The position numbers were made by a program, and so were the translations under genes. The notes under the pieces were generated by a model that was not told where the DNA came from, did no database searches, and worked only from the letters and a program-made list of their open reading frames with translations. Below are positions 15,661-42,108 of a stretch of DNA of 56,990 nucleotides, one piece after another (within the stretch, counting starts at the first letter, position 1; each line of letters starts with the position of its first letter). The stretch comes from Candidatus Thermosaccharophagus tengchongensis (GTDB lineage: Bacteria; Armatimonadota; Fervidibacteria; Fervidibacterales; Thermosaccharophagaceae): assembly GCA_032161105.1 (NCBI GenBank), contig JAVHTD010000021.1, one strand, 5' to 3'.

Positions 15661-15686
15661 CGGATCACCCCTCAGATGCAATCGGC

Positions 15687-15920
15687 TCACGCGGTCTTTT
15701 TGATGATGATTTTGAACCAATCATGCGCTGGCTCAACCTCAACATGGCAACCCATGCTCTTTGCCATGCGTGAGACATTTTCCTTTGGAGCGCCCGGGTC
15801 AACCAACACTATAACCTCGCCTCGCCCAATCCCCTCAAGCGCTTTGCGAACACGAATTACAGGCTCAGGGCAAAGCAATCCGCGGCAATCAATCTCCACC
15901 TTCGTTTCCTCACTCGGCAT
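15687..15920 (-). CDS. TusA/SirA-family sulfur or selenium carrier, YedF-like
   Basis: IDCRGLLCPEPVIRVRKAL (CPxP motif), VLVD..AP.ENVSR; 77 aa. Confidence 0.88.
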   Translation of the reverse strand: MPSEETKVEIDCRGLLCPEPVIRVRKALEGIGRGEVIVLVDPGAPKENVSRMAKSMGCHVEVEPAHDWFKIIIKKTA

Positions 15921-16005
15921 GCGTTAACCCCCCTTGGAGGCAAAAGTTATCCGCACCATCACGGGCAGTGTGCAAATTGTAAATGATAGATGGGCAACAT
16001 TTCTT

Positions 16006-16070
16006 GGGAGGGTGAGGCTCCTGCCGAACCTAAACTCATTTTATAGGCTTACCGAGAGGTTCGCCCTCCC
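16006..16070. repeat. REPIN-like degenerate inverted repeat
   Basis: GGGAGGGTGAGGCTCCTGCCGAACCT (16006-31) and inverted AGGCTTACCGAGAGGTTCGCCCTCCC (16045-70), about 17/26 matches; left arm has its own GGCTC..GAACC hairpin. Confidence 0.55.
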
Positions 16071-16195
16071 TGTGGCATCGCTTACAATGTGCATATCACC
16101 CCATCACAATTATAGCGTCGGTTTATCCTGCCCTGAGTAACTTCCGCAATTTGACCCCCAAACCTTAATGAGAACGCAAACGCCCTTTCCTGCCA

Positions 16196-16223
16196 AGTAT
16201 TTTGGCTCATGGGGGATGAGCCA
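16196..16223. repeat. Left 28-bp boundary repeat of the island
   Basis: AGTATTTTGGCTCATGGGGGATGAGCCA; 27/28 identical to 32246-32273; contains TGGCTCAT-N5-ATGAGCCA. Confidence 0.9.
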
Positions 16224-16522
16224 TGCAAAAGAATTTCAACAGCCACAGTTTGTTGGAAGGTTGCCTCATATCCAAAGCGAAGTGACCCATTACATATGCT
16301 TTGTGTGCCACAGAATGAGAATGAAAGCCAAATACGAGCAATACAAACAATACAAAGATGGAATTCACATTCAAATGCCATCTTGCCACATCAATAGCAA
16401 TCACTATGCAACAATCAAAAATGACACACACTTCCTTAGTATAGCAGTTTAAACCCTCAATCCGTTCTTTCGCTTTCTCGCACAGAATGGTGAGAATTTG
16501 CTACCATCAGCCCATTTATCAA

Positions 16523-19387: not shown

Positions 19388-19487
19388 ACGACCTTCACCT
19401 CCCTGCGGGAGTTTTACTCCATCCGAAACACCATGCCATCACTGACTAAGTAGCTGCACATTAAATGCCAATTCGTTCGCATAAATC

Positions 19488-22400
19488 TCAATGCAATTGT
19501 GTCATTGTCACTGCTTGAACCTGCCTTCCATCCTCATCGGTTGCTGTCAAACGCACTAAGTATGTTCCTGCAGGCAATTTCATCCCATCTCTCGTAAAGC
19601 CTCTCCAGATTATGCGGTGGCAAAGCGAGCCATCACTTTGAGGGACTTCAAGCAAGGAAATTCTCCTCCCAGTCAATGTCAAAACTTCTGCAAAAGCTTG
19701 AGCGGGCTTTGTTAAAGCGAACTCAATCATTACAGTTTGTCCTCTCATCGGTGTCGCCCTTAAGCCGACAATCCTCAAAGGTCTTTCGTTGCTTATCTCT
19801 GTGATGACTTTGAACCTCCTCTCACTCTCACCTTCATTTGGCACAAACCGATATTCCGTCTGTGTCCTCATGTATCGCCTCGTCCCTGTAGCTAAATCAA
19901 CCAAAGTCAAACTCATATCCTTTGGAGCATATCCAATTCCATCCCAAGTCAGGGTTACTTCTTTTTGCCTCGTCCCTGTCCCTTGTCCCCCGTCACTCGT
20001 CCCAAACTTTACAACCACATCCCAATCTTGCCTTTGCCTAATTCCATTTCTCACATCTACTGCCAAAGGGGCACCGTTGTTGAGCACAATAATTTGCACA
20101 TTGCTGCCTCCTTCAGGTGGCTCAGGTGGCAATCTAATTGCCAATCCCCTTGAACTTTGAGAAACTCCCAGAATTACCTCTCCACTCTCATCTCCAACTT
20201 TAGCCACCAGCTTCATCATCCATCCATTGCCTTTCACTACTCGTCCCGTGTCTCTTGCCCCTTGTCCATTACTCTGGCTTGGCGGTGGCAGTATAAGTTC
20301 ACAATCCTGATGAGCATAGACCCAATATCCCTTCCATGGCTCAATTTGCCCTTTAACTTCTGGGACGATGCTTGTGTCATAGACCAGGACATACTTTCCT
20401 TTAAACGGGTCATTTTCATCCTGCTCCCAACCCCAAGCATAATCTTCAATCCATCCAGCCTGTTGGGCTTGAGTCAAGGTCTTCACTTCCCCACCCTTGC
20501 GCACTTGAATTTGGTCTAATTGCCAGAAGATAGCCTGTGTAAATGGATTGCCAATGGCATTCCATCCACAAGATAGGATGATAGAGGAAGGCTGCTCCTC
20601 ACTCACCATTCGTCCAAGAGTATAAAGTTTTCTTGATTGACCTGGCGTCAATTTCAACCAATATCCATTACCAGCTTGTGCTTTATTAGCAGGCTCTTGA
20701 GGATAGAAAACATATTTATTCACAACCCATTTCGCTACTTTTACTTGATTTGGTTCCAGTCCCAATATTACTTCCCATTCAGGATTTTCCAAATGGATTG
20801 GCATGGAAATGAAATGTAATCCCTCGCTCAAAAAGACAATATCACTTTGGTAAAGTCTGGATCCAGATTCACTTAACCATCCTTTACCAATTTCACCCAC
20901 ATATTTGTAGTATTTTGCGTTGCTTCTGTCCCCCTTGGCATTCTTGTCATATTCAGTAGCCTTCGTGGGGTCTTTAAAGTAAAGATAGGGAATATCAATA
21001 CAACGCCATACCTGCGAGTTTACTCTCTCGGTTTTCACAACGACGAATCTTTGTCCCTTCCAAATGTATACATCCCTATAACCCTCGTAACTTTGTGTTC
21101 CACTCCATGTCCGAATTTTGTATTTATTTGAGTCTTCCTGTCTCATCAAAACACTATCATTTTTTACTTCAACTACCTTAGCATCTGAAACTATCTTTAT
21201 GTCAGAACCTCTTATCCACGCTGAAATTTTACCTCTTGAATTTGGAATATCAATACAATACCATACTATCCCTTTATCATCCTTAGCCTTCCCGATAGCC
21301 ACAAACTTTTGACCTTTCTTAACCCACCCTAAGGCTGCATGCTCAACCCCTGGACCCGCTCGCAATATGCTGTCATTGGTCATTTCAAAAGGAGTAGGAG
21401 TGATAGACTCTGAGGAGAACGGCTTTATCATCACCATTGGGTCTATATACCCATAGCCATCAGGTAAGTCTGGTGTATAACCCCAGTGCAAGTCACCGCT
21501 TGGCGCTTCTAATACTCCTTTTTTCTTTACCTCAAAGTGGAGATGGATATTGGACGAATTTCGCCGTGAATACTCTGAAAATCCCATTAAACCTATTGTA
21601 TCGCCTACATTAACCCATGGTTTCCCATCAAATTTCCCATTATTGTAGTATTTCTCCCATATGTCCTTTCTCACCGCATCAAGATGTCCGTATAAACTAT
21701 AGACTTTTTTGCCACCTCCTAAGTCATGCTCAATAATTATTGTTATGCCAAGTCCATGATTATTCTCAGAACGGTTAGTTGGTAATTCACCCGAAACAGT
21801 ATTATTATCGTGATTCCATAGAACAATTTTTTCGGAAGTCGTTCCGGGACCGGCAAGCCCAATTATAAAAACAACATTACCAGACGCCGCTGCCTTAACC
21901 GGGGTCCCACGCACACCTAAAATATCAACACCCACATGATACATTTTATTACCTACCCTGTTGAAGCTCGCGTAATCGTTGCTCCATGTGGGGTTGTCCA
22001 CTGGCCAGCGCCATTCTTTTGTCTTCAGTCCAACCCTTAATTCCGTTCTCATTTGGTCATTCGCTCTGTCAATCTGGTTAGCGGTTCCATCAGCATCCAC
22101 AGTGACCCAAAGATAGTAATTGCCAAACTGAATGTTGGATGGAATAGTGATTTTTCCTTGGGTGTGAGTCAATGATTGACCGGGATTCAATTCTGGGGTG
22201 CTAAACTCCACTAACATATAGTCTGAAGGGCTTGGAGCATCCTGACGCTGACTCAATTGAATTTTCGTCTTAGATGCGCTTGCCTTCACTCTACCCTGAT
22301 TGAAAACCTTGACGCTTACGGTCACTATGCCTCCTGGCATCACCGCTGTTGGGTTAACCCATAAGTCCTTTGGAACTAAATCAGGAACATCTCTTCTAAC

Positions 22401-23177
22401 AATAAAACTTCTCGTCTCGCTCCAACCACTTTCTGCTCCCCGTTTATCTATCGCTTTCGCTTTCCATGTCCATTGACCATCTATGAAGGCTTGGTTTGAT
22501 GGGACAGTGTATGTTGCTTCTGCTCCACTGGCAACAAAGGGTGTATCAAACACTTTCGTGATGCCACCCTGCTTTGCTTCAATCCTAAACTTCACTTGAT
22601 CTTCTTCTGGGTCATCGGATTTAACTTTGAAGGTGGGAGTAGGTGAAATTGCTACCCCGCTCTCGGGGAAAAGCAATGTGGGACAGTTGGGCGCTGTATT
22701 GGGGACAAATTTGACTTTTCTTTGCTCGCTGCGCAAACTCCATCGTTGCCCCTCGTTATCTGTTGCTAATGCCCACCAAAGATACTCACCAGCAGGGATA
22801 CGCTGATTTTCGGGCACAGTGAAAGTGGCAATCTCACCCGAGGCGTAACTCTCCTTATCCCACCCCGCTTGATCCTTCGTTTGGTCAAAGACCCAAACTT
22901 GAACATTTCCCTGTCGCTCTTTAAGCGGTGGTGGAGGGGGAGGCTGTGTTTGCATCACCACGATTTTAAATTTCAAATTGTCTCCCTCAGGGTCAATTGC
23001 ACGGATTTGAAACTTTTCCCGGTGCACAGCAATTGTCGCTTCAGAGGCAGGGAAGACCAAAACAGGAGAGTTTGGAGGCCGATTTTCCTGACCCAAAATT
23101 GGCGTCAGCCAATTCAATGCAAGTCCTAAAAACAATATCCACCACATCCCCACATAGGAGACCTTCACACCGCTCAT
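19488..23177 (-). CDS. Secreted modular M23 peptidase (Ig/Fn3-like x2, CARDB, M23, SH3b-like, conserved C-terminal region with FlgD-Ig-like tail)
   Basis: Signal peptide; PDLVPKDLWV..VTVSVKVFNQG (CARDB); YHVGVD, PVKAAASG, LYGHL, HLHFEV (M23 Zn ligands); LRAGPG..GIVWYCI..AWI (SH3b-like). Confidence 0.85.
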   Translation of the reverse strand: MSGVKVSYVGMWWILFLGLALNWLTPILGQENRPPNSPVLVFPASEATIAVHREKFQIRAIDPEGDNLKFKIVVMQTQPPPPPPLKERQGNVQVWVFDQTKDQAGWDKESYASGEIATFTVPENQRIPAGEYLWWALATDNEGQRWSLRSEQRKVKFVPNTAPNCPTLLFPESGVAISPTPTFKVKSDDPEEDQVKFRIEAKQGGITKVFDTPFVASGAEATYTVPSNQAFIDGQWTWKAKAIDKRGAESGWSETRSFIVRRDVPDLVPKDLWVNPTAVMPGGIVTVSVKVFNQGRVKASASKTKIQLSQRQDAPSPSDYMLVEFSTPELNPGQSLTHTQGKITIPSNIQFGNYYLWVTVDADGTANQIDRANDQMRTELRVGLKTKEWRWPVDNPTWSNDYASFNRVGNKMYHVGVDILGVRGTPVKAAASGNVVFIIGLAGPGTTSEKIVLWNHDNNTVSGELPTNRSENNHGLGITIIIEHDLGGGKKVYSLYGHLDAVRKDIWEKYYNNGKFDGKPWVNVGDTIGLMGFSEYSRRNSSNIHLHFEVKKKGVLEAPSGDLHWGYTPDLPDGYGYIDPMVMIKPFSSESITPTPFEMTNDSILRAGPGVEHAALGWVKKGQKFVAIGKAKDDKGIVWYCIDIPNSRGKISAWIRGSDIKIVSDAKVVEVKNDSVLMRQEDSNKYKIRTWSGTQSYEGYRDVYIWKGQRFVVVKTERVNSQVWRCIDIPYLYFKDPTKATEYDKNAKGDRSNAKYYKYVGEIGKGWLSESGSRLYQSDIVFLSEGLHFISMPIHLENPEWEVILGLEPNQVKVAKWVVNKYVFYPQEPANKAQAGNGYWLKLTPGQSRKLYTLGRMVSEEQPSSIILSCGWNAIGNPFTQAIFWQLDQIQVRKGGEVKTLTQAQQAGWIEDYAWGWEQDENDPFKGKYVLVYDTSIVPEVKGQIEPWKGYWVYAHQDCELILPPPSQSNGQGARDTGRVVKGNGWMMKLVAKVGDESGEVILGVSQSSRGLAIRLPPEPPEGGSNVQIIVLNNGAPLAVDVRNGIRQRQDWDVVVKFGTSDGGQGTGTRQKEVTLTWDGIGYAPKDMSLTLVDLATGTRRYMRTQTEYRFVPNEGESERRFKVITEISNERPLRIVGLRATPMRGQTVMIEFALTKPAQAFAEVLTLTGRRISLLEVPQSDGSLCHRIIWRGFTRDGMKLPAGTYLVRLTATDEDGRQVQAVTMTQLH

Positions 23178-23192
23178 CTTTCAATCCCCTCA

Positions 23193-26100
23193 TCAATGCA
23201 ACACAAAGGTCGTCACTGCCTGAACTTGTCTCCCATCCTCATCTTGAGCGTAGACCCGAATCAGATAGACACCGTTTGGCAGTTTCCGTCCTTGAGAATC
23301 CACGCCTCGCCATACAACAGTATTTTGACCTTCAGAACGGCTTTGCGCCACCTCTACCAAAGCAACCTTTCTTCCCGTCAAAGTGAGCACTTCCACATGA
23401 GTCGTTGCCGGTTTCGTTAACGCAAACTGGATGAGCACTTCCCGTCCGCGAGTGGCGACTGCTTTTAGGTTCACAATTCTCAGCAAACCCAAACCACCTT
23501 GCTCCAAAATAACCTTAAATCGCCGCTGGGTTTCATCCGCTTTCGGTCTGAAGGAGTAAGCCGATTGTGTTCGCAGGTAACGCCTCGTGCCTGTTGCTGT
23601 GTCTATCAGCCATGCACTCATCCCTTTTGGTAAGTAGCCAAGACCGTCCCATGTCATTTGTATTTCTTCAAACTTGCCTTGTCCTCTTGTTTCACCCCAC
23701 AAGGTTGGACTTCTTTGTTGTGCATCCCACTTGACAATGACATCCCATTCCGCCTTCCGAGCATTTCCAAACCGCACATCGGCAGCCAGTGGCTTGCCAG
23801 CCGTGTTTATGGCAAAAATTTGCAAGCCATTTTGTCCAGGTGATTCAGGTGGTAACATTGCTTGCAAACCTCTCTCATTGCGCCCTCGTCCTGTTGCTTC
23901 GTTGGTAAAGCCAAGCCAAACTCGCCGCTTCGTTTGCCCGTTGCTTGCCACAAGACCAAAAACGAAACCGTTTTCAGCGATGCGCCTCCTACCTGACGAA
24001 ACGCCACGCATCGCATCGCTCTTTGGTGGAATCACCAACTGGCATTCCTTAAAAGCATACACCCAGTAGCCTTTAAGCACATCCAGTGTCTCAAGCAATC
24101 CAATCCCTGAAACGCCTCCCCAAACCATCTGGTAGTCACCGATTTCAGGATCCCATGTCCATAGGATTTCATGCACTACCCTTTGTTCTGCGGCTTGCTG
24201 GAAGGTCAATTCATTGCCATCCTTACGCACTTTCAAGTTTGCCCATTTCACCTGCCATGGAACGCCGATGATTTGCCATCCTGGCTTTAAGTTGATGACG
24301 AACGGCTCACGGCTCTTTGGCAGGCTACCAGTTACCGTTGCCCGAACTGGGTTGTCCAATTTGATCCAAACACCCACACCAGGCTTTGGCTTACGCTCTT
24401 CTTCTGTCAATTCGCTATACAAGCGGTATCGCCCTTCGGTAGGTTCGTAAATCGCCAGTTTCATTTGGTCTTCTGAAATACCCAAAATCTCATGCCATTG
24501 CTTGTCCACCGAGATCGGCAACGAAACCATGAATAACCCGATACCGCTTTCAAAGGGCAGTTGAGGTGGTTGCACATTGACGGTAACGGGAATCTGAACG
24601 CCTTCCTTCGGTTTATTGAGGTCGTTGGTGTAAACTGTCACCGTCCCGCTCACTTCACCGTCTGCTTCAAAGGCACTGCCGTCTATAGTAATGGTGACAA
24701 CTTGTTCCTGTCCCGCATCGGTCGTCCCACCCAGCGGTTCCATCCTCAGCCATTCTGGCTGTGGTGTTACAATGACGAAACTTTCATCAGGGGCTCTGTC
24801 CACTTCATACAATTCGTCATCGTGCAATTCCACAAAGATGCCGAACTCTTCGGTTATGCTGATCTCCGAGAGTGGCACACCTACTTCTACCACATTTCCT
24901 TCCACTTTTCGCCACGCCAAGCCGGAAACATACTCAAAACCTTGCAAATCGTTATTCCACTTCAGCAAACCGTCAGAATCTTCACCAAGTATGACCATGT
25001 AATCAGCACCAAAGTTGGTAAGCAGCCCAGCACCTGTTTGCGAGTTAATGTCAGTATCAATGTTGATGTAGAGAGCCGTATCCACTGGGTCAAAGGTTCG
25101 CCCTGAAGTTTCTATCTTGAAGTAAAGGGTCGTCTCATTGCGTTGCAAATAAACCTTGGTGATGCTGCAGGAATTTTCCACAGTGGACATTGCAGGGTCA
25201 ACGATAATCCAACGCCAGTCATTGGGCGAAGGCGCGGGTGTTGGCGCTTGCCTGCTCCTTCCTGACCGAGCAGATGAAGCGCCAATGACTGGCAGTGGCA
25301 AAGTTATGGGTTGACCTTGCTTAATCTCATTTGTTGTGAGTTTCTCTGAAAGTGTTGGTTCAGTCAGTTTTTGCCGTGTTGGCATCGTTCTTGCTGATGG
25401 GCTTAGACCAGAAGCCATTGGTGAAAGGAAGGTAATAAGCCTTTGCCCTGAACATGGGTTGGGAAGGGGCTTGCTTCGCTTCTTGCCTGTTGAAGGGGTG
25501 ATGCTTGAAAAGTCCACAGAACCACCACCAACATTTTGAACCTTACGCTCTGCAGATGCTTCCTTTCCTATCTCCACAGAAGCCTGCACAGGCGTTGAGT
25601 CCATGCTGAACTGCGGCGTTGGCTGAACTTCTAATGAAAGGGTGTAGCGGAATTCCTCCCCACCTTCCCCACGAAAGTCCGTCAGTTTCAGGTAATAAGT
25701 TCCCGTCACAGGCAACTTGAATCGCCGAACAGTTGGGTCGTAGCCGTTCACATCATCCCAGACAGCAATCTGGTTGCCATCGGCATCGTAAAGGGTAACG
25801 ATGGCATCCAGCGGTGAACCGTCTCTCCTTGCCCTGACATCCAAGTTCAAATATTCACCAGCAGTCGCCTCAAATCGGAAAACATCCACATCACCATGAT
25901 GCCCAATCGTGCCTGTGACCTCAACGCTCCCACCAGTGGCAATGTGATGTGCACTCTCAAACTGGTCGCCAAAGTCATCGTCAACTTCTTTGCGAAGGTA
26001 AAGTGTATAGGAATGGTTCTCCGAGCCACTACCGTCGCCGGACTCAACCTTAATGTAAAAAGTTCCCGAATGGGGAAGGAGAAAGTGCCAAATGGCAGGG

Positions 26101-29100
26101 TCTACAGTATTGCGCGGACTATCGTCATCGTTCCACGCCAAGATGCTTTGACCATCGCTATCATACACCGTTAACACAGCATCCAACTTTGAACTGTTCT
26201 GTTCCGCCACAATCCAGATAGAAAACCACTCTCCAACATCTCCACTAAACCTGAACCAGTCAACATCGGTGTTGGTTGCAATTAAGCCACTTTTGTTACT
26301 ATTAGCAGCAATTTCGGTCGCTGTATCAGGCGTATCATTTGGTTCGTCACTTTCGCTTTGCCTACCTTGCGCTAACTTGTTAATCTGCTTAATCACCAGG
26401 TCTGCGGCGGAACCTTTGAATAGATTTAAGTCAAATTTACCAAGCTCCACGACATTATTATTTTCTCTCTGCGTCAGCCACAGGTCTCCAGCAAATTGCC
26501 ATATAAGCCAGTCGGGAATCTTGATTGGCCAATCCTTAGAATCGGGACCCCACCACTCATCATTTTCTGGGTTTACTACTTCCCATAGGTCCTGTGCGTA
26601 AAGAACGTCCTCTACCGGAACTCTTATTTTTCCTTCTTTAATACCATAAGTTTTCTGCAGGGTGTCGTTGGAGTACGGCCATCTCGCAACCCAGGGAAAA
26701 ATCTGCAACCCCGGGTTCTTCTTCTGCCTATTGTCAATTTCACTCATCAATATATCTATAAAAAATTTGCCATTTACAGAACTCTTTAGCAAGCTGTACT
26801 GAATATAGACTACTGGAGTAACATACAAATTCTTTTCTTGGGCCTTTTTATATATCGTTTCGCACCATGTAACAATCCACTTCGCTAAATGCTGTAGGTC
26901 TACGCCTTTAGTATTAGTTTCTTCAATGTCCAACATAGGTTGGAGACGGCCGGCTTGAAGGAATGAAGTCTCCTTAGCAGTGCCGGATGAGGAGGCGGCA
27001 TTGAAGAAATACTCTGCTTCCCTTTTTGCCCCTTCCTCGCCTTTGTTTATATCAGGTCGGGCAAAGTGATATCCACCGACAAACCTTCTCTTTAACGCTA
27101 AAAACTGTTCATTGACCCGCAGCAGGGAACGTGAGATACCTTCGGTTAGTTTCACATATATAAAGGTGAACTTAGAGTCCAGAAGTTCGTCGAGCTTGTC
27201 AACATTCTTAATGTTAAGGTTGTCCATCCCAAACGTGTCTAATCCGAAATCGTAAGGGTAAATAGGTAATGTCTTTGAAGATTGGCTTATTTCATTGCCA
27301 TCTTGGTCTTTCAACAAGCAGCGAAGCTCCCAGCAGCCGGCTTTGTCAGGGTTGATAGTGAATGGTTCTATGTAAGGCGGTGTTGACCCAGCGAATTCTA
27401 AACTTTTTTCCCCAACCTGAAAGTAGAGGGAGTCCGGGGGCTTTATTTGAAGGATTGCTTTCAATTTTTGTCCTGCCCATTTCTTCAGGGATTCAAGTGC
27501 GTCTCGCAGGAATGATATCTTAACGCGAACTGCGTCTCCAGGCCGTGGACGCTTGGGGTTTGTAGTAATTGAAGTTAAAATTGAATCCTGGCTGTTGGGT
27601 TCGGGAGAAGATGCTATAATAGGCTTGCCTAACCACCTTCCTATGCTGTCCGTCTTGCTGTAGTCAATTTCAACTTCTTGTCCGTCTATTTCGGTTATTT
27701 GGACGGGTCCGCTTTTTATATGTCTTAGCTCAAAGTGCAAATGGGGACCGGCTACCAAACCTGTTTTTCCGCACTTACCTATTACTTGGCGTGCTTTAAC
27801 CTCCATCCCTATCCGGACGTCAATACTGTTTAGATGTGCGTACCTTGTGAAATATTCGGGATTGTCTTTACTTTTTATGTCCACGTATAAGCCGTATCCT
27901 CCCGGTTTTTCTCCGACCGAGATTACGACGCCGTCGTGAGCAGCACAGATCGGTTGATTTTCGTCATCCTCTGGATCCCCGTAAGGCCATTCGTCACGAA
28001 TATTTTTCACTTTGTTAAAGTCCAAAGCATATTCTGAAGGGAGATGCCCTTTATATGTTGACGGTTGCCACCACTGTCCCTCTTTCCATGGTGCAACGAG
28101 CTGGATTGGCTGCTTATACTGATACTGGATAAATGAAGCGGTTATGCTTCGGTTTCGGTCCATCGTGATTGTGGCAGGATTGTCTTTTGTAGTCATAGAT
28201 GGCACATCGCCAGACCATCGGGAAAACAGAAATCCGCTATTTGGAGTCGCTTCTATCCTCACTGAACTTCCTTTGGGCACTTGGATGCTATGAACATAAT
28301 CCCAATCCGTCCATTGGTCATTAACCTTTACTCTGACCTTACCACTGTTTTGCGGGTAAACATTAAGGTTCAGGGTGAATGAATCAACAGACTTAGTTCG
28401 GAAATTTGCCGTAATGGTCTTGTCACGATTCACCACAACCGTCAAGGGATTAGATGTGCCTGATGCATCACCAGACCATTGTGCAAACTCATAACCGCTG
28501 TTTGGTAGTGCCTGCACCGTGAGGGATGTGCCATTAGCGAACCGTTTGCTGAAGGGCAAAGCGAACTCTTCACCATTTGCGGAAATCTTCCCTGCCCCAG
28601 ATGGATTACCAGAAATGGTAACCAAGAAGGTCTGAATCACTCCGCTACCTTGAAGTGGAACAGTGTAAGGTGATATCTTATTTGTGGCATTATGGGTAAA
28701 CTGCAACTCACCAGAGTAGGTTTTCTCCTGTGTTGGCTTGAACTGAATATGCACATCCCTGTATTGCCCTGGTGAAAGGCTGAAGTTAGTGGATTCCCCA
28801 GAAGCAAGTTGGAAGCCTTCACCTACTTTCAGGTTGGAAATGCTCAATGTATCGTTGGAATTACTTGAGTTCTCTATACGCACCACTTGTTCCATAGTGG
28901 TATTGACTTCCACGCTACCAAAGTTAACTGATACCGGCGATAAACGAAGTTCCACAACTTTTGCCTCCGTTGTGCTTCTACCACGAAGCGAGTAAGTGAT
29001 GGGGCTACTATGGCTTGTGGCATTGTGAGAGATGGTCAAAGTCCCCGAATAATCCCCGTTGGAAGTCGGTTCAAAGCGAACGGTAACGATACGGCGATAA

Positions 29101-31610
29101 CCAGGATATAGTTCAAAGGAACTGCTCCCGAGGAAACGGAACCCCTGCCCTGTGATAGAGATCGTGCCCGTTAAAATGCCAATGGAAGAGGAGTCGTTCG
29201 TGATGGTAATGGGTATGTCTTTGTATGTTCCGCTCTTAATATCGCCAAAATCAATGGTAGAGCCTGGAGTATGGGAGAGCACAGCAACTCTGGAGAAAGG
29301 CTGAGTTTGTTCTTTGACAAGGTAAACACCGTTATTGAGTTGGCTATCTGCACTCCAGCCGATTGTGCCATCATCCCACTTGATCAGCCACCAAATCATT
29401 CCATCCACCTTTACTGGTTGCTCATCAAGGGTCCAACCTTTGCTGCCGGGAGGTTGGCGTTTTACTACAGTGCCATTAAGTCCTGGTGATTCACGGGTGT
29501 TCAACCCACCTGCGCTGGAAGTGTCATCGTAAACTCGGACACAGTAAGATAGGTTGCCATGAGTAACGCTTGGATAGACTCCAGATCCCGGCAATGCTTC
29601 AAGATACACCCCTGCCGAACCACTTTCTGCTGACCAACCAAGATGCCCTGATGCCCACGAGATTTTCCACCATGTTAACCCCGATGCCACTCTCGGACCG
29701 TCTTTGACTACTCCCTCCGCACCTGCTGCTTTGAAGGTGATAGGGTCACCACTACCCGGTTCTGGACGAACGCTCACCCCTTTGCCATTGTTCTGTTTTC
29801 CTCCCGTGAAAGTAACACACACCCTGTCATCAACGCTAAACCGTCCCGTAACAGGAGATGTCTTTGTTGTAAACCTCCAGACATCGCCGCTGGTTTGCCC
29901 ATTCTGATTCTTTGCCACGATTTTCCAGTAGTAAGTGGTGCCCTCTTGCAGATTGGAAATGGAGAACTGATTGGTCGTAAGGTCCGCTTTGTAAAGTGGC
30001 GGGTTGGCGCTTGTGCCAAAGTAGAGGTCGTATTTTTGCGCGCCGTCGGCAGACCAGGACAAGGTCAACGAAGTTGGTTGGTCTGTAGCGCCATCAGCAG
30101 GGGAAGGATTAGATGGTTTGGAAGGATTGGACCCCGAAGGAGCAGATACCTCCCAATAATACCACCTTGTTGGATCGGCTGGTGATTCGGCAGAGTTGCC
30201 GGATGTATCCACTGCTCGTATTCGGAAATAGTATTTTTGTGAACTTGTTGAAGTATTAGCAGGAACAGAGTAAACCAACTTGTAGGTTTTTGCAGTTTCC
30301 TTACCCATGCGGAAAGTATCAACGGCACCGTTGGGTTTCATTACTTTAGCCTCAACATACGAAAGACCAACGTTATCCTCAACGTCAGCCCGAATAGTAA
30401 CGCTGCCTCCTGAACTGGGTAAAGATGTCGGGTCTATCCCAACATTGGTTATTGTCGGAGGTGTGTTGTCTAAAGTAGGAGTTGTAGTTGTAAATGATAG
30501 GATATTTCCGTAGGACCATCCTGCTGCATTCTTTGCCCAAGCGCGGAAATAATAAGTTGTGCCTGGCGTGAGATTGGTGAGCCTGTAGTAAAAATCTTTA
30601 CCATTCCCACTCACCGTGACATTGTTAGTCCAATCTTTCCATCCGCTGCCATTGGGAGTTGTCCCCCAGTCAAATCGCCTTTCAAGGATGGGAAGCCCTC
30701 CATCATTTGTGATGGAAGCATTTATGGTCGCCTCAGTTGAAGAAACACCAGTAGCGTTTCTGGTCTCTACAGAGGGAGGGGAGGCAGTTTGAAAATACAG
30801 GGACGGGTATACAGTATGTGAGAAGTCGCTTGCAAGTTCGTAGTCACCCTCTTCCATCCAAGCACGCATGTTCCACCTATACTTTGTTGCCCAACTAAGT
30901 TTGTTAGGGGGCAAGCGGTAGGAAGTAGCCCTTATCTTCAAGCCCTCACTTTCACTATCAAACACGAGTTGATTACTGTCGAGATCCTTAATGTAAAAAG
31001 CATAGTAACTGGCGTTACGGGAAGCATTCCACTGAAAGAGGGGGGTCAGAGTATCAAGAGTCGGCCCGGGCGAAGAGGCTGTTCCTGGCGAAAGGGGCTG
31101 CGGAGGGGGTGGTGGGATATAAAAATAAAGACGATCTGAAAACTCTGTCCATTGCCCACCTTTATAGGCTCGCATATTCCAACGGTATAGGTGACCGGGC
31201 TCTAAATCACTATCAAGGGTAAAGGAGGTGCTGCTGCCTGAGATTGTCTCATTTTCATAAACGAGGTTTGCTTGCCCGTAGGGATACTTACTAATGTAAA
31301 GTCCGTACTTGCTGGCGCCAGAGACGCCTTGCCACCTAAAAGTCGGGCGATACTTTGTCACTCTCTCTCCAGGTTTAGAGGATGTGCCCGGGGATTGAGG
31401 AGTTGGCTGGCTCCAACAAAAGCTCGTTTCAAAGAAAACCAAGAAAGCAGTGGCTAATATTACCACCATCGAGCGAACATTGCGAATCATCCCTCGCCTT
31501 ACCTGTTTGCATTTTTGCTCGATCAACTTCCCTTGAACCAGCGCCATTGAAATCAGGGCAACATTTTGTGCTGCTCCTCTGGCTTTTTTGCTCCACCTTT
31601 CCATCGTCAT
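23193..31610 (-). CDS. Giant secreted modular peptidoglycan hydrolase (Fn3/Ig repeats, SH3b x2, ASH-like x2, InlB-B-like x2, M23, GH25, PPC x2, conserved C-terminal region)
   Basis: M23 ICAAHDG..GGYG..RYAHL..GPHLHFE (about 27650-28110); GH25 FGLD..YVKLTEG..GGYHFARP..LDIEE..IWQF..DLN (about 26400-27250); PPC DVDWFRF/DVDVFRF..LDA.L..YD.DG; signal peptide suggests an alternative start at MIRNVRS. Confidence 0.85.
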   Translation of the reverse strand: MTMERWSKKARGAAQNVALISMALVQGKLIEQKCKQVRRGMIRNVRSMVVILATAFLVFFETSFCWSQPTPQSPGTSSKPGERVTKYRPTFRWQGVSGASKYGLYISKYPYGQANLVYENETISGSSTSFTLDSDLEPGHLYRWNMRAYKGGQWTEFSDRLYFYIPPPPPQPLSPGTASSPGPTLDTLTPLFQWNASRNASYYAFYIKDLDSNQLVFDSESEGLKIRATSYRLPPNKLSWATKYRWNMRAWMEEGDYELASDFSHTVYPSLYFQTASPPSVETRNATGVSSTEATINASITNDGGLPILERRFDWGTTPNGSGWKDWTNNVTVSGNGKDFYYRLTNLTPGTTYYFRAWAKNAAGWSYGNILSFTTTTPTLDNTPPTITNVGIDPTSLPSSGGSVTIRADVEDNVGLSYVEAKVMKPNGAVDTFRMGKETAKTYKLVYSVPANTSTSSQKYYFRIRAVDTSGNSAESPADPTRWYYWEVSAPSGSNPSKPSNPSPADGATDQPTSLTLSWSADGAQKYDLYFGTSANPPLYKADLTTNQFSISNLQEGTTYYWKIVAKNQNGQTSGDVWRFTTKTSPVTGRFSVDDRVCVTFTGGKQNNGKGVSVRPEPGSGDPITFKAAGAEGVVKDGPRVASGLTWWKISWASGHLGWSAESGSAGVYLEALPGSGVYPSVTHGNLSYCVRVYDDTSSAGGLNTRESPGLNGTVVKRQPPGSKGWTLDEQPVKVDGMIWWLIKWDDGTIGWSADSQLNNGVYLVKEQTQPFSRVAVLSHTPGSTIDFGDIKSGTYKDIPITITNDSSSIGILTGTISITGQGFRFLGSSSFELYPGYRRIVTVRFEPTSNGDYSGTLTISHNATSHSSPITYSLRGRSTTEAKVVELRLSPVSVNFGSVEVNTTMEQVVRIENSSNSNDTLSISNLKVGEGFQLASGESTNFSLSPGQYRDVHIQFKPTQEKTYSGELQFTHNATNKISPYTVPLQGSGVIQTFLVTISGNPSGAGKISANGEEFALPFSKRFANGTSLTVQALPNSGYEFAQWSGDASGTSNPLTVVVNRDKTITANFRTKSVDSFTLNLNVYPQNSGKVRVKVNDQWTDWDYVHSIQVPKGSSVRIEATPNSGFLFSRWSGDVPSMTTKDNPATITMDRNRSITASFIQYQYKQPIQLVAPWKEGQWWQPSTYKGHLPSEYALDFNKVKNIRDEWPYGDPEDDENQPICAAHDGVVISVGEKPGGYGLYVDIKSKDNPEYFTRYAHLNSIDVRIGMEVKARQVIGKCGKTGLVAGPHLHFELRHIKSGPVQITEIDGQEVEIDYSKTDSIGRWLGKPIIASSPEPNSQDSILTSITTNPKRPRPGDAVRVKISFLRDALESLKKWAGQKLKAILQIKPPDSLYFQVGEKSLEFAGSTPPYIEPFTINPDKAGCWELRCLLKDQDGNEISQSSKTLPIYPYDFGLDTFGMDNLNIKNVDKLDELLDSKFTFIYVKLTEGISRSLLRVNEQFLALKRRFVGGYHFARPDINKGEEGAKREAEYFFNAASSSGTAKETSFLQAGRLQPMLDIEETNTKGVDLQHLAKWIVTWCETIYKKAQEKNLYVTPVVYIQYSLLKSSVNGKFFIDILMSEIDNRQKKNPGLQIFPWVARWPYSNDTLQKTYGIKEGKIRVPVEDVLYAQDLWEVVNPENDEWWGPDSKDWPIKIPDWLIWQFAGDLWLTQRENNNVVELGKFDLNLFKGSAADLVIKQINKLAQGRQSESDEPNDTPDTATEIAANSNKSGLIATNTDVDWFRFSGDVGEWFSIWIVAEQNSSKLDAVLTVYDSDGQSILAWNDDDSPRNTVDPAIWHFLLPHSGTFYIKVESGDGSGSENHSYTLYLRKEVDDDFGDQFESAHHIATGGSVEVTGTIGHHGDVDVFRFEATAGEYLNLDVRARRDGSPLDAIVTLYDADGNQIAVWDDVNGYDPTVRRFKLPVTGTYYLKLTDFRGEGGEEFRYTLSLEVQPTPQFSMDSTPVQASVEIGKEASAERKVQNVGGGSVDFSSITPSTGKKRSKPLPNPCSGQRLITFLSPMASGLSPSARTMPTRQKLTEPTLSEKLTTNEIKQGQPITLPLPVIGASSARSGRSRQAPTPAPSPNDWRWIIVDPAMSTVENSCSITKVYLQRNETTLYFKIETSGRTFDPVDTALYINIDTDINSQTGAGLLTNFGADYMVILGEDSDGLLKWNNDLQGFEYVSGLAWRKVEGNVVEVGVPLSEISITEEFGIFVELHDDELYEVDRAPDESFVIVTPQPEWLRMEPLGGTTDAGQEQVVTITIDGSAFEADGEVSGTVTVYTNDLNKPKEGVQIPVTVNVQPPQLPFESGIGLFMVSLPISVDKQWHEILGISEDQMKLAIYEPTEGRYRLYSELTEEERKPKPGVGVWIKLDNPVRATVTGSLPKSREPFVINLKPGWQIIGVPWQVKWANLKVRKDGNELTFQQAAEQRVVHEILWTWDPEIGDYQMVWGGVSGIGLLETLDVLKGYWVYAFKECQLVIPPKSDAMRGVSSGRRRIAENGFVFGLVASNGQTKRRVWLGFTNEATGRGRNERGLQAMLPPESPGQNGLQIFAINTAGKPLAADVRFGNARKAEWDVIVKWDAQQRSPTLWGETRGQGKFEEIQMTWDGLGYLPKGMSAWLIDTATGTRRYLRTQSAYSFRPKADETQRRFKVILEQGGLGLLRIVNLKAVATRGREVLIQFALTKPATTHVEVLTLTGRKVALVEVAQSRSEGQNTVVWRGVDSQGRKLPNGVYLIRVYAQDEDGRQVQAVTTFVLH

Positions 31611-32019
31611 CGCCTCCCTTCACTTTAGATCTTAAGAAATTCAGAACGAGTCCTGGGCAAGCTTAGCCAACCCCTTTGTTCCTCTAATTATAACGGCTTT
31701 GCCCCTTGTTAAGGGTATGGAGGAGAAAGTAAAGGGTGAAAGCCCAACCAGCAACGAGCCATCCCAACCAGTCCTGCCTTTGCTTTGCTCCCCTGGCTTC
31801 TGCTCCCATCCCGCAATTTACCTTCCTCACCAACCAGAACCCATGGCCAGCCCTCTTCCTCACGAAGCAGCTGAGCCATCGTCCACTTCCACCTCCGATT
31901 GGTTTGCACTTTCTCATTATGCTCCGCCATCCAATTGGCGGAGTAATTTTTCACATTCAATTATAACTCACTGTTGAGTCAGTTGCGGTATGGATTGCTA
32001 CCGTTTGCATCACAATCCA

Positions 32020-32048
32020 ATTGTAACTCAATTTACTTTGCTGAGCAA
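32020..32048 (-). promoter_or_regulatory. Sigma70-type promoter pointing into the island operon
   Basis: Minus strand TTGCTC-N17-TACAAT; a second -10 (TATAAT, 31960-65) lies in a 13-bp repeat exactly 60 bp downstream. Confidence 0.45.
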
Positions 32049-32245
32049 CCTTTCAAAACCCAACACCCTATCTTTACGATAATGCAACCACACATGCTTG
32101 TAAAGCCTTAACCACAAGGGAAGGCACGAGCAAATGCGCCTCTCAATCGCCGTATGGGCACGGATATTGATGCTAAAGCCCCTCCTACATTATAGCAGAC
32201 CAACTGCAAATGCTAAACATCGCTACCTACTCGGCTTAACATGTC

Positions 32246-32273
32246 AGTATTTTGGCTCATGGGGAATGAGCCA
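32246..32273. repeat. Right 28-bp boundary repeat of the island
   Basis: AGTATTTTGGCTCATGGGGAATGAGCCA; one mismatch to the left copy, located in the 5-bp palindrome spacer. Confidence 0.9.
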
Positions 32274-32533
32274 CGCCGTTAACAACTCCATTTGACAGTT
32301 AATTGATGTCAATCCCTCCTCTCAAACTCCCTCGTCTAGGCCTCCAAAATTGGGCGGTATCTCTTGTCGTCGCACAAGGCGTTCGTTGTGTTGGTGCTAT
32401 TCTCTTGTTTCTTCTGCCTCCCCCTTTATCGCGTTCAGCCCCCGGAATCCTTTGTTCAACGCGACATTGTGCTGTCGCTCACTTGAGATTCGCCTTTCAC
32501 CAAACCGCAATGTGCCCTGTGTAGTGTGAAAGC

Positions 32534-33658
32534 TCAATGTTGGCTTTCGTCACGGCTCGCAGATGCTATAGCTATGACGATGCAGAGTGCGATCAGCACA
32601 GCTGCTTTGCCGTAAATTGAAGGACCGCCAATTATGCCCTGTGCATCGGGCATTGCAGCCAATTTAAGGTTATGGGCAATTGATGCGCCAAATAGCATCC
32701 CGAAAACTGTTAAAGCCGAGTCGGCATTTCCCTCCCCGGCGAGGATGAGCTGCCTCAATGGGCAGCCGCCCATAAGGACGGCGCAAATTCCGGCGAGCAT
32801 CATGCCGGCGAAGTTCCACATGTGAGCTGAATGCGCTATCGGTTGGTTTGAGAAGCCGAAATGAAATTGCCCGAGGGCGATGTTCACAGCGAGTGCGGCG
32901 ATGAAAAATGAGACTATGCCCCAAAGGAGGTGTGCATCGGCAATCAGGATGACATCGCGAAAGCCCCCGGCAAAGCACAATCGCCCGCGCTGTGCAAGCA
33001 CCCCTATGAGCAAGCCAGCAGCAAGCGATATGAGCGGATTGGCGTGCATTGCGCCCGGACCAGTGACACTTGAGCGCATGATCTCATGGGCAAACAGGCT
33101 GAGGAAAAGCATCGCAACAAGGAAGATGTGAATCACACAAGCATCCGCCATTCTAACCCTTGATGCTGCGCCGAGCGAGAAGCCGGCTTTAAAAAATTGC
33201 ACGCCAATGTAAACCCCAACAACCCAACCAATTAACGCAGCCAACGCCGTCATATCACCGGCTGATAGCCTGAGCATCATCCTTGCTGGACAGCCCAGAA
33301 AGGTGAGCGCGCCAATCATGAAAAGCGCTCCGAGCACAAAGCGCAAAATTGGTGACGAGCCGCCACGCGGTTTAAATTCGCGGAAGAGCAAAGCGCCAAT
33401 GTATGCTCCAAGCACAAAGCCGACTATCTCAGGGCGCATGTATTGAACCTTTTCTGCGCTGTGCAATCCGAGTGCACCGGCTATGTCACGGAGGAAACAT
33501 GCAACGCATACGCCCATGTTTGGCGGGTTGCCGAGTTTGCTAAGCAGCGCCGCGAGAACCCCAAACACGGCGCCGGCTGCGATGACCGCTGGTGAAGTTC
33601 CCCACCGCATGGAGTGTGCCCACCTCACCATGCGCTGCATATCGCAACTGCCCTTCAA
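32534..33658 (-). CDS. yedE: YedE-family putative selenium/sulfur transporter
   Basis: GNPPNMGVCVACFLRDIAGALGLH, YMRPEI, FLGCP.RM.LRL, QRGRLCFAGGFRD, GGCPLRQLILAGEG; start uncertain (possibly 33640). Confidence 0.9.
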   Translation of the reverse strand: MKGSCDMQRMVRWAHSMRWGTSPAVIAAGAVFGVLAALLSKLGNPPNMGVCVACFLRDIAGALGLHSAEKVQYMRPEIVGFVLGAYIGALLFREFKPRGGSSPILRFVLGALFMIGALTFLGCPARMMLRLSAGDMTALAALIGWVVGVYIGVQFFKAGFSLGAASRVRMADACVIHIFLVAMLFLSLFAHEIMRSSVTGPGAMHANPLISLAAGLLIGVLAQRGRLCFAGGFRDVILIADAHLLWGIVSFFIAALAVNIALGQFHFGFSNQPIAHSAHMWNFAGMMLAGICAVLMGGCPLRQLILAGEGNADSALTVFGMLFGASIAHNLKLAAMPDAQGIIGGPSIYGKAAVLIALCIVIAIASASRDESQH

Positions 33659-40959: not shown

Positions 40960-42108
40960 GTGATTTGGATGAGGTTGATTGTTCTTGCGATGCTGATGCT
41001 CGTGGTGGTGAGCAACACAGCAGCATGGCAGCGGAGGATGCCGCCAACGGCGGCAAAGATCAAGCAGCTTAGGGAGAGGAAAGCCGAAATTGAGCGCAAA
41101 AAGAGGGAAGCCCTGAGGAGGCTGCGCGAGGTGAAAAGGAAGGAGCGCTCAATATCGGATAGGTTGCAGCAGATACAAATTGAGTTGCTTTCGGCGACGG
41201 AACGATATAACCGCTTGAGCCGTCAGCTCTCGTTTGTGGGACAGCAAGTTGGAAGGTTAAGAGGCGATGTTAAGCGTCTATCGGATAAGCTTGCAAGTGA
41301 TAGGGCGAAGTTCCGAAGCAGGCTCGTCAGCATTTACAAGCAGGAACCTGTCATGTATGTCTCGCTGCTTTTGTCATCAAAGGACATGATGGATGCAGCG
41401 AGCAGGTTTTATGTGCTGCGCAAGGTGGTCGTTAGCGACTCGCAATTGATAAGGAGCATAGAGAAGCATATTGATGAGCTCAAGGAGAAGCAGCGCGAGC
41501 TTGAGAGGCGAGAGAGTGAGCTTAGGCAATTGCAGGAGCAAGTTGCGATGCAAAGGCAGCAGATTGAGGAGAATAAGGCGAAGCAGGAGAGGATTCTGCG
41601 CTCTGTTCAATCTGAGCGCATAATGTATGAGCGCTACTTGCGTGAGTGGGAGGAGGAATCGGAAGCCATTGAGCGCATGTTGCGCGCTTTGCAGCTTAGG
41701 GCTGGAGTTAGCACGACACCTTGGAGGGGCTCGTTCGTCAGACCGGTCGTCGGCACGGTCACTTCCGTGTTCGGATATAGGGTTCACCCGATATTCAAAA
41801 TCGTGCGCTTCCATACAGGTGTTGACATATCGGCGAGTTATGGGACACCGATAAGGGCGGCAGCTGGTGGGACAGTCGTCTTTAGCGGTTGGAGGCGAGC
41901 CTATGGCTTGACCGTCATCATTGACCACGGCAATGGCATAGCAACTTTGTATGCGCATTGCTCAAGCCTGTATGTTTCAGAGGGTCAAAATGTTGAATCC
42001 GGTCAAGTCATAGCCGCTGTCGGAAGCACGGGGCTGTCAACGGGACCTCACCTTCATTTTGAGGTGAGGCGATACGGCACGCCAATAAATCCGTTCACGA
42101 TGCAGTGA
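40960..42108 (+). CDS. EnvC-like coiled-coil M23 peptidoglycan endopeptidase/activator
   Basis: Signal peptide, long coiled coil, FHTGVDI, TLYAHCS, GSTGLSTGPHLHFEVR. Confidence 0.92.
   Translation: MIWMRLIVLAMLMLVVVSNTAAWQRRMPPTAAKIKQLRERKAEIERKKREALRRLREVKRKERSISDRLQQIQIELLSATERYNRLSRQLSFVGQQVGRLRGDVKRLSDKLASDRAKFRSRLVSIYKQEPVMYVSLLLSSKDMMDAASRFYVLRKVVVSDSQLIRSIEKHIDELKEKQRELERRESELRQLQEQVAMQRQQIEENKAKQERILRSVQSERIMYERYLREWEEESEAIERMLRALQLRAGVSTTPWRGSFVRPVVGTVTSVFGYRVHPIFKIVRFHTGVDISASYGTPIRAAAGGTVVFSGWRRAYGLTVIIDHGNGIATLYAHCSSLYVSEGQNVESGQVIAAVGSTGLSTGPHLHFEVRRYGTPINPFTMQ

Follow-up and report, generated by a model that had tools for sequence, protein, structure and literature searches.

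The domain families of bacterial wall-degrading enzymes are known, as are secreted bacteriolytic hydrolases, their patchy distribution and the replacement of their catalytic domains. Lysostaphin, zoocin A, LasA and beta-lytic protease join an M23 peptidase domain, with its H(x)nD and HxH motifs, to an SH3b-type domain, and lysostaphin-type enzymes are exported, aimed at the walls of other cells and patchily distributed. The phage and streptococcal lysins Cpl-1, LytC and Psm have a GH25 muramidase domain, and bifunctional wall lysins pair such a domain with a cross-link-cutting peptidase and SH3b-like binding domains. At the level of organization, the polymorphic toxins (Rhs, contact-dependent inhibition (CDI) and MafB) combine a delivery scaffold that is conserved with enzyme modules that vary from one close strain to the next and are exchanged at their borders, and the type A cargo of the type IX secretion system (T9SS) of Bacteroidota consists of many unrelated exoproteins with a common C-terminal Ig-like beta-sandwich. 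Here we analyse a stretch of 56,990 nucleotides (nt), hereafter the window, of the genome of Candidatus Thermosaccharophagus tengchongensis (G000; 2.74 Mb, 97% complete), in which two tandem genes encode exoproteins of 2805 and 1229 amino acids (aa), named P0002 and P0001, that resemble each of these systems in part. We found that copies of the locus that are otherwise nearly identical carry different enzyme cassettes in place of the M23-Ig-GH25 cassette of the giant protein. The interpretation that we favour, at slightly better than an even chance, is that the proteins would be outward-directed wall-degrading enzymes, carried to the cell surface by a shared tail and encoded on a strain-variable island, that attack the cell walls of foreign bacteria or of cells already dead.

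The locus departs from each of the described systems as well. Compared with the lysostaphin-type enzymes, to which we liken them from sequence, the proteins are 5-10 times larger and have a long Ig/Fn3/PPC stalk and a 450-aa tail; moreover, two catalytic types occur in one protein, the producer is a diderm thermophile and the enzyme part is an exchangeable internal cassette. The GH25 fold and motifs are shared with Cpl-1, LytC and Psm (structural matches 4krt_B, 2ixu_A and 2ww5_A), whereas, unlike in bifunctional lysins, a phage context is lacking, the enzymes are preceded by signal peptides and they lie midway in a surface scaffold of 2805 aa. In contrast to T9SS cargo, the tail is about 450 aa long and has two further conserved domains that are unnamed in any library, and neither PorU nor SprA rises above its cut-off in the window's genome. 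The variable module is internal rather than C-terminal as in polymorphic toxins, no adjacent immunity gene is evident, and the presumed target is the outside of the wall, not a cytoplasm or periplasm reached by injection. Finally, the weaponised peptidoglycan hydrolases of archaea are described as horizontally acquired, patchily distributed and subject to catalytic-domain replacement (PMC12352652); the present case differs in that the producer has peptidoglycan and in its architecture and tail. A limited search of the literature on M23/GH25/SH3b bacteriolytic enzymes and on type IX secretion in Armatimonadota yielded no description of such a locus. This is weak evidence, and with that reserve we do not recognise as described an exchangeable internal enzyme cassette in a giant tail-bearing scaffold, its strain-level variants, the presence of M23 and GH25 in one such protein, or the encoding of a further M23 protein and of a lipoprotein by one and the same mobile block.

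The two genes form, together with a third, a block of about 16 kb with a low G+C content (GC):

23193..31610, minus strand: giant exoprotein gene (P0002), an intact open reading frame (ORF) of 2805 aa from the first ATG
19488..23177, minus strand: second exoprotein gene (P0001), an intact ORF of 1229 aa
16523..19387, minus strand: NHL-repeat lipoprotein gene (P0003), 954 aa, with lipobox VVGC and eight NHL repeats, the third gene of the block

A first-pass annotation, made from the sequence alone, had described a tandem co-oriented pair 15 bp apart with a signal peptide on each product. The ORFs lie exactly so, with a gap of 15 nt (23178-23192) that contains a Shine-Dalgarno-like GGGGA motif, and P0003 follows in the same orientation 100 nt downstream of P0001. 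The public gene call of P0002 starts at the second ATG (31604) and gives 2803 aa; the exact sequence of P0001 is present in public collections. Both N-termini are hydrophobic and signal-like, as judged by eye only: in P0001 the segment spans residues 1-29 and ends in ILG/Q (the slash marks the likely cleavage site), and in P0002 hydrophobic residues 48-60 and CWS/Q at 65-68 are preceded by an N-extension of 40-47 residues.

The part of the giant gene that is exchanged is internal to it and corresponds to residues about 1138-1818:

26157..28198, minus strand: exchangeable enzyme cassette M23-Ig-GH25, at the DNA level without similarity to locus L033, between flanks that are 92-96% identical

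Locus L033 is an independent JGI metagenome contig of 10,725 nt (we write L030-L034 for fetched loci, G001-G003 for the same-genus genomes and P0018, P0032, P0035, P0036, P0081 and P0129 for database proteins) that carries the same three-gene block, i.e. the C-terminal 1820 aa of the giant gene, 14 nt, a 1229-aa protein, 100 nt and a P0003-like start. Its proteins are 96.3% identical to P0001 and 97.1% to P0003, and its DNA is 95.9% identical to window 17931-26156 (8230 nt) and 92.2% to 28199-28968 (785 nt). In place of window 26157-28198 it has 1721 unrelated nt (GC 0.434) that encode an Ig domain and a different M23 domain, with HAGVD, AHL and HLH intact, which is 30% identical to the M23 of P0001 and has no match to that of P0002; L033 has no GH25. 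The breakpoints fall at domain linkers, namely at the end of Flg_new_2 and before the PPC domains. Other variants carry other contents: P0081 (NCBI), which is 93.5% identical to P0002 residues 565-1164 and 88% to 1740-2805, has a 482-aa Peptidase_C39_2 centre; a 2622-aa relative on L034, with flanks 51-54% identical, has C39_2 in the cassette slot; and P0129, with flanks 41-49% identical, keeps Ig-GH25 and lacks the M23. An enzyme is found in the slot of five of the six giant-gene variants examined (window, L033, P0081, L034 and P0129; the sixth, in genome G012, is treated below). The term 'polymorphic' had been applied to the pair together with the proposal to survey homologs for variable enzyme domains, and it is apt, given that the central cassette differs between near-identical copies of the locus.

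P0002 consists, in order, of about five Fn3/Ig units, two SH3b-like domains, two choice-of-anchor D/ASH domains and two Flg_new_2 domains, followed by M23 and GH25 with an Ig-like domain between them, a pair of PPC domains, an unassigned domain and the tail:

29856..31409, minus strand: Fn3/Ig-like array of about five domains, residues 68-585 (fn3, FN3_DSCAM-like, Ig_Rha78A_N)
29286..29855, minus strand: two SH3b-like repeats, residues 586-775, without hidden Markov model (HMM) support
28131..29273, minus strand: conserved scaffold of two choice-of-anchor D/ASH Ig and two Flg_new_2 domains, residues 780-1160
27681..28118, minus strand: M23 peptidase domain, residues 1165-1310 (profile matches TagE, ShyA, LytM and others)
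27246..27587, minus strand: Ig-like beta-sandwich between M23 and GH25, residues 1342-1455
26361..27248, minus strand: GH25 muramidase domain, residues 1455-1750 (D1463, D1561/E1563)
25491..26348, minus strand: two PPC domains, residues about 1755-2040
24726..25238, minus strand: unassigned domain, residues 2125-2295, no Pfam match

The long Ig/Fn3/ASH/PPC stalk of the first-pass annotation is thereby recovered, with the Flg_new_2 domains in addition. Look-alikes of the unassigned domain belong mostly to unnamed clusters, and 6 of 30 carry Glucodextran_C. The predicted M23 and GH25 domains both reach the cut-offs of their Pfam families. For M23 (PF01551) the score is 75.1 bits against a cut-off of 28.7, and the motifs comprise H1259 and H1290-L-H1292 (the HLH noted earlier), with H1189-x7-D1197 rather than HxxxD as the first motif. 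This H(x)7D is kept in the closest M23 relatives, P0018 and P0032; according to a review (PMC9662197) the H(x)nD spacing is variable, and phage gp13 has H(x)7D. The modelled domain (model residues 41-167) has a LytM-type fold (2b0p_A: Z 13.3, root-mean-square deviation (rmsd) 3.0 A, 108 residues aligned), with Foldseek matches at rmsd 1.3-2.0 A over about 90 residues, and the Ig-like part of the model (residues 193-306) has Ig/PKD-like matches at Z 9-10.

In a scan restricted to residues 1460-1810, the GH25 domain (PF01183) reaches 38.9 bits (cut-off 27) as a partial match to 21-141 of the 180 profile positions, and it is not listed in a scan of the whole protein at E<=0.01. In alignment with canonical GH25 proteins from an exhaustive search it is complete, with two lineage-specific insertions, and conserves G-M-D1463, KLTEG, GGYHFARP, EAEYF, PMLD1561-I-E1563 (the DIE motif recorded before), a C-terminal WQ and D-x-N-x-F. 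In this alignment, A3, D1463 and D1561 stand in invariant columns and E1563 (E1564 as gapped, a shift of one column) matches an invariant Glu; the strand-1 Asp and the D-x-E pair are the catalytic residues known from cellosyl and Cpl-1. The profile made from A3, which includes the P0002 domain and is dominated by its three canonical members, matches 11 solved GH25 chains, with cellosyl (1jfx) as the best at E 1.3e-35. A word-index search with residues 1455-1760 against proteins of 168-536 aa gave no match at E<=0.001, and in the exhaustive search, made with residues 1440-1830, which the PPC part swamps, 5 proteins besides the query match GH25 among the 271 that were re-scored. The fold model (model residues 320-600) matches 4krt_B (Z 13.2, 174 residues aligned; the C-terminal half has a predicted local distance difference test score (pLDDT) below 50) and further GH25 lysins, i.e. 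5jip_B (Z 12.9), 6zmv_B (12.8) and 2ixu_A (11.8).

The P0001 protein consists, according to Pfam scans, of an Ig_Rha78A_N-like domain, CARDB, M23, an SH3_3 domain with a second SH3-like repeat, and the tail:

21498..22025, minus strand: M23 domain with large insertions, residues 385-560 (HVGVD, H498, HLH)
20943..21380, minus strand: SH3b region, residues 600-745, one Pfam-level copy, the second an internal repeat (DNA repeat D5)

Its M23 site had been called intact, and indeed the motifs are complete (the canonical H414-x3-D418, HVGVD; H498; H545-L-H547) and the PF01551 score of 44.6 bits exceeds the cut-off of 28.7; the region has no match among PDB sequences. The SH3b-like domains that had been assigned to both proteins hold for P0001, where residues 605-660 score 27.9 and 29.5 bits (PF08239, cut-off 27), and lack HMM support in P0002. 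There, the pair is suggested by language-model look-alikes (SH3_3 clusters; 0.96, 175 of 256 features shared), and the region is 40% identical in the G012 homologue. Similarly, CARDB (PF07705), which had been expected in a scan, was found in P0001, not in P0002.

These domains bear on the possibility that the proteins act on something other than peptidoglycan, the M23 domains as LasA-like proteases and the GH25-like domain on another polysaccharide, within a general polymer-degrading repertoire. Some M23A enzymes cut elastin and other proteins (PMC9662197), the lineage is rich in carbohydrate-active enzymes (PMC11535203) and a GH106 rhamnosidase is encoded nearby. The GH25 catalytic and substrate-groove motifs are kept, however, SH3b-type domains accompany both enzymes, and the pairing of a glycan cutter with a cross-link cutter is typical of wall lysins, so that we give this explanation only a small probability.

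As to the stalk, metagenome contigs L031 and L032, when compared with window 28844-31989, lack window 30127-30485, i.e. about 120 aa or one Ig/Fn3 unit, and L032 additionally lacks about 900 nt (window about 30783-31683). The N-terminal stalk therefore varies in unit number between strains.

Both proteins end in the same module:

23196..24590, minus strand: C-terminal tail module of P0002, residues 2341-2805, three beta domains, the last FlgD_ig/T9SS-CTD-like (CTD, C-terminal domain)
19491..20825, minus strand: C-terminal tail module of P0001, residues 785-1229

The tails, of about 450 aa, are 40% identical (P0001 786-1229 versus P0002 2358-2805), and the fold model is all-beta (pLDDT 84.9). 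A database search retrieved the module from 136 proteins (675-2151 aa), on cargo as different as S8 and M6 peptidases, alpha/beta hydrolases, WD40/PD40 propellers, beta-helix, VWA, LVIVD and CarboxypepD_reg arrays; among the matches listed, 6 of 120 have an M23 domain, and the source names point to Armatimonadota, Candidatus Fervidibacter and Fimbriimonadales. Within the related Armatimonadota genomes, 36 of 40 have the tail, with 1-12 matches each in ORFs of roughly 600 to >4700 aa, the window's genome has it in 7 ORFs (5 complete), and a genome-collection scan with the P0001 tail retrieved one locus, in a metagenome-assembled genome of Candidatus Fervidibacter sinensis. Because it is found phylum-wide on very different cargo, we consider the tail, from its sequence distribution, to serve export or anchoring in general rather than to belong to a dedicated lytic system. 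On this point the first-pass annotation, which had proposed that the pair is an exported enzyme set for lysing or scavenging walls, has to be revised: both proteins belong to a phylum-wide class of exoproteins with a shared tail and unrelated cargoes.

The last tail domain (367-465) resembles the PorU CTD (rmsd 2.5 A over 94 aligned residues, Z 10.8) and also many Fn3/Ig folds at Z near 10, and the fold matches of the tail are generic Ig arrays, an S-layer protein among them. With TIGR04183 the full-length P0002 scores 47.8 bits (cut-off 23) and the tail alone 18.3, and P0001 is not listed. The GldM profile had no match in the genome and none in the control either, which makes that search void.

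Several further observations concern the tail family. A Gln follows the likely cleavage site, as read by eye, in P0001, P0002 and five other tail-bearing ORFs (ILG/Q, CWS/Q, ALG/QQ, AEA/Q, SFG/QS, VSA/Q and LAA/QQ), which recalls the N-terminal pyroglutamate of T9SS cargo in Bacteroidota. On contig C4 of the window's genome (C4:1-9617; L003-L005) three co-oriented tail-bearing genes stand in series, with products of 780 aa (CarboxypepD_reg-like), 1108 aa (with an HETGH metalloprotease motif) and 648 aa (cut at the contig end), so that tandem arrays of tail exoproteins recur in the genome. On contig C1:69436-72939 (L030:6437-9940) an ORF of 1167 aa has an end (...QLRGTF) like that of an outer-membrane barrel and matches the SprA family weakly (36.2 bits, cut-off 200). 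Its neighbours are CarboxypepD_reg/PEGA genes and an LptC-related gene, and 1.9 kb downstream of it a 764-aa protein is encoded that has only the first tail domain at its end; the ORF could be a lead to the export route of the tail. Finally, in the tail-bearing P0035 (1815 aa, JGI) M23 and VWA occur together with a weak SLT lytic-transglycosylase match (23.9 bits, cut-off 21.3), so that the joining of a glycan cutter to a cross-link cutter may have happened more than once in this family.

The hydrolases, unlike the tail, are rarely encountered. Neither cassette was found in the same-genus genomes, and the block is absent from all three. A query with M23 and GH25 retrieved, in 37 of the 40 relatives, only housekeeping M23 genes of about 390 aa, the GH25 part being unmatched; the P0001 cassette has matches in 2 of 300 other genomes of the phylum, both partial; and the scaffold (P0002 residues 565-1164) is present in one of the 40 relatives (G012), also in part. 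A genome-collection scan with P0081 found no relative. A single-copy core architecture across the lineage, which the earlier annotation had named as evidence against its proposal, is thus not what the genomes contain. The separate housekeeping-type M23 that it had mentioned is present and conserved:

40960..42108, plus strand: housekeeping M23 gene, 132 bits, with a PcsB coiled coil, counterpart of about 390 aa in 37 of the 40 relatives

The distribution is relevant to an alternative in which the proteins are autolysins directed at the sacculus of the producer itself and serve in growth, in the separation of daughter cells or in clearing space for an envelope machine. Autolysins are frequent among M23 and GH25 enzymes (PMC9662197), the cells of a cultivated relative remain attached after division (PMC11535203), and the tail may not bring its cargo across the outer membrane. 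Nevertheless, an autolysin role is unlikely, because the distribution is patchy, with the block absent from three of three same-genus genomes and not syntenic, and 9 kb away the genome encodes a conserved housekeeping M23 that has a PcsB-like coiled coil; in addition, the cassette is exchanged between strains, and known division hydrolases do not resemble a long-stalked protein of 2805 aa. We rate this alternative as rather improbable.

The genomic context agrees with the horizontal acquisition that had been suggested for the pair, in terms of GC, of absence from the syntenic site in G003 and of a unique flanking direct repeat:

32534..33658, minus strand: YeeE/Sulf_transp-like gene, right conserved flank, with homology to G003
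15687..15920, minus strand: TusA-like small ORF, left conserved flank (CPxP motif by eye)
16196..16226, no strand: 31-nt direct repeat, left copy, bracketing the island
32246..32276, no strand: 31-nt direct repeat, right copy, 29/31 identical to the left, with a 7-bp-stem hairpin inside

From the YeeE-like gene to the DUF6785 gene the distance is 16.8 kb here versus 1.35 kb in G003, where the TusA-like ORF lies between. Homology to G003 ends at window 15896 and restarts at 32565, so that it is the block that separates the YeeE-like gene from its TusA-like neighbour. The copies of the repeat (family D8) are 16,050 nt apart and are the only two in the genome at <=5 mismatches; the repeat was not seen in the flank loci of G001-G003 or in any fetched locus. 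Deletion of one copy plus the intervening DNA would leave a spacer of about 620 nt, where that of G003 is 719 nt. Across the block the GC is 0.415-0.50, compared with 0.52-0.53 in the flanks and 0.522 in the genome, and the two hydrolase cassettes have the lowest values of the block, 0.415 and 0.445, which fall in the lowest 1% or so of the genome's 1.7-kb windows. That the block is a remnant of a phage or mobile element, with virion-associated or lysis enzymes, would fit the direct repeats and the matches of the M23 domains to PHROGs endolysin, tape-measure and head-protein families. Those matches are limited to the generic M23 core, however, the 16-kb block has no capsid, terminase or phage tail gene and no integrase or transposase among its ORFs, and the two products begin with signal peptides and end in a tail module that belongs to the host phylum. 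Nor were the genes seen inside a recognisable prophage or viral contig; the chance of this explanation is minimal.

Two side observations concern the neighbouring genes. The DUF6785/DUF6784 membrane protein next to the island (window 13699-15720) has 14-18 paralogous matches per same-genus genome, and another copy adjoins the giant homologue on L034. The match to the YeeE-like gene in G002 (C80:1647-2738) contains 2 in-frame TGA codons and that to the housekeeping M23 in G003 (C89:26087-26395) contains 1; these may stem from recoding, from pseudogenes or from errors of sequencing.

Upstream of the giant gene, a promoter-like sequence can be indicated by consensus match only:

32189..32216, minus strand: best sigma-70-like promoter match upstream of P0002, TTAGCA-16-TATAAT with TG, 10/12 matches

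Overall the sigma-70-like scan was not enriched (18 found versus 21.9 expected). The region of about 920 nt 5' of the giant gene (window 31611-32533) has no convincing ORF and no Rfam match and may be a long leader or regulatory region; the 379 nt closest to the gene (31611-31989) are about 95% identical in L031. ARAGORN called a tRNA-His and a tRNA-Ser(ACT) antisense within the two exoprotein ORFs (window 22132-22218 and 29437-29519, plus strand), which we take to be probably false because Rfam gives no tRNA there, nor any match in window 15000-33000 at E<=0.1.

If the proteins are indeed outward-directed wall-degrading enzymes, the following mechanism can be envisaged. They would be exported via Sec and then anchored at, or released from, the surface beyond the outer membrane of the diderm cell in a tail-dependent manner, the SH3b-like domains would dock on foreign peptidoglycan, and, on one and the same sacculus, M23 would cut the peptide cross-links and GH25 the glycan strand. 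Through recombination at domain linkers the enzyme 'warhead' would be swapped between co-existing strains, which would alter the wall chemistries open to attack. A cultivated relative is diderm (PMC11535203), and a long-stalked, outward-facing enzyme would therefore not reach the producer's own wall. The benefit could be the killing of competitors or the harvesting of wall material from dead cells, which sequence does not distinguish. A more specific proposal, which we put forward tentatively and hold to be possible rather than probable, is that of a 'plug-in lysin display' locus, in which a conserved giant surface scaffold is exported along a tail-dependent route not yet described and its internal warhead is swapped by recombination among co-existing strains of hot-spring Fervidibacteria; three kinds of warhead have been encountered to date, namely M23-Ig-GH25, another type of M23 and a peptidase of C39-like type.

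A number of points weigh against wall-degrading enzymes that face outward. With respect to the enzymes, the fold model of P0002 residues 1150-1800 was built from 14 sequences and has a mean pLDDT of 58.8, with values below 50 also in the stretch of H1189/D1197, and, as the model cannot be relied on in that stretch, the zinc site of the P0002 M23 is no more than plausibly intact. The SH3b-like residues 585-775 have no Pfam match at E<=1 and no match among PDB sequences. With respect to export, the best PorU score in the window's genome is 22.7 bits (cut-off 420), with only the Ig end matched, and the best SprA score is 36.2 bits (cut-off 200); retention of the cargo in the periplasm by the tail would expose the cell's own wall to the enzymes. 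Diderm neighbours would have their walls shielded from an external enzyme by their outer membranes, and no immunity-like gene was recognised in the block, its non-coding ends included. Contigs from one hot-spring run cover the whole block without differences and at a depth similar to the flanks, but that run is a possible source of the assembly and therefore not independent support. In the contigs of further sequencing runs (X2-X4) parts of the block are uncovered, and none of the contigs spans the island, observations to which we attach no weight. Lastly, the scaffold also occurs without an enzyme. The pair in G012 (2310 and 1149 aa, with 7 nt between stop and start codons, at a different genomic site) has the same ends and a middle of Ig/BACON-type domains only, with no recognisable hydrolase, which indicates a separate role for the scaffold itself, perhaps in adhesion. 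In the P0001-like P0036, Ig repeats stand where M23-SH3b would be; P0036 and P0081 are neighbours by inference only, from the equal length of their contigs.

It is from these enzyme-free forms that the main rival explanation derives, namely that the proteins are surface adhesins or matrix proteins whose core function, attachment to cells, mats or polymers, resides in stalk and tail, and that the hydrolases are accessory or serve only in remodelling the material to which the cell adheres. The variable number of stalk units between strains and the generic Ig arrays, S-layer protein included, among the fold matches of the tail suit such a role too. Against it, both genes of the window encode hydrolase domains with catalytic motifs that are intact or plausibly intact, SH3b-type wall-binding domains accompany the enzymes, and the slot is filled by an enzyme in all but one of the six variants. 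On balance we consider a primarily adhesive function unlikely, and continue to favour the degradation of foreign or dead walls.

If the more tentative proposal of a plug-in lysin display is true, the locus would be an outward-facing, contact-range counterpart of the polymorphic toxins, driving a strain-level arms race over wall chemistry at >65 C. If the favoured interpretation is right, it would represent a natural exchange of enzyme cassettes within a fixed display scaffold at the strain level (about 96% nucleotide identity in the flanks). The locus would offer thermostable M23 and GH25 candidates with natural binding domains, and, because identical tails and stalks carry different cargo, its variants are useful for probing the phylum-wide tail. 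For the biology of the Armatimonadota, it would show how a barely cultivated thermophilic phylum attacks or recycles bacterial walls.

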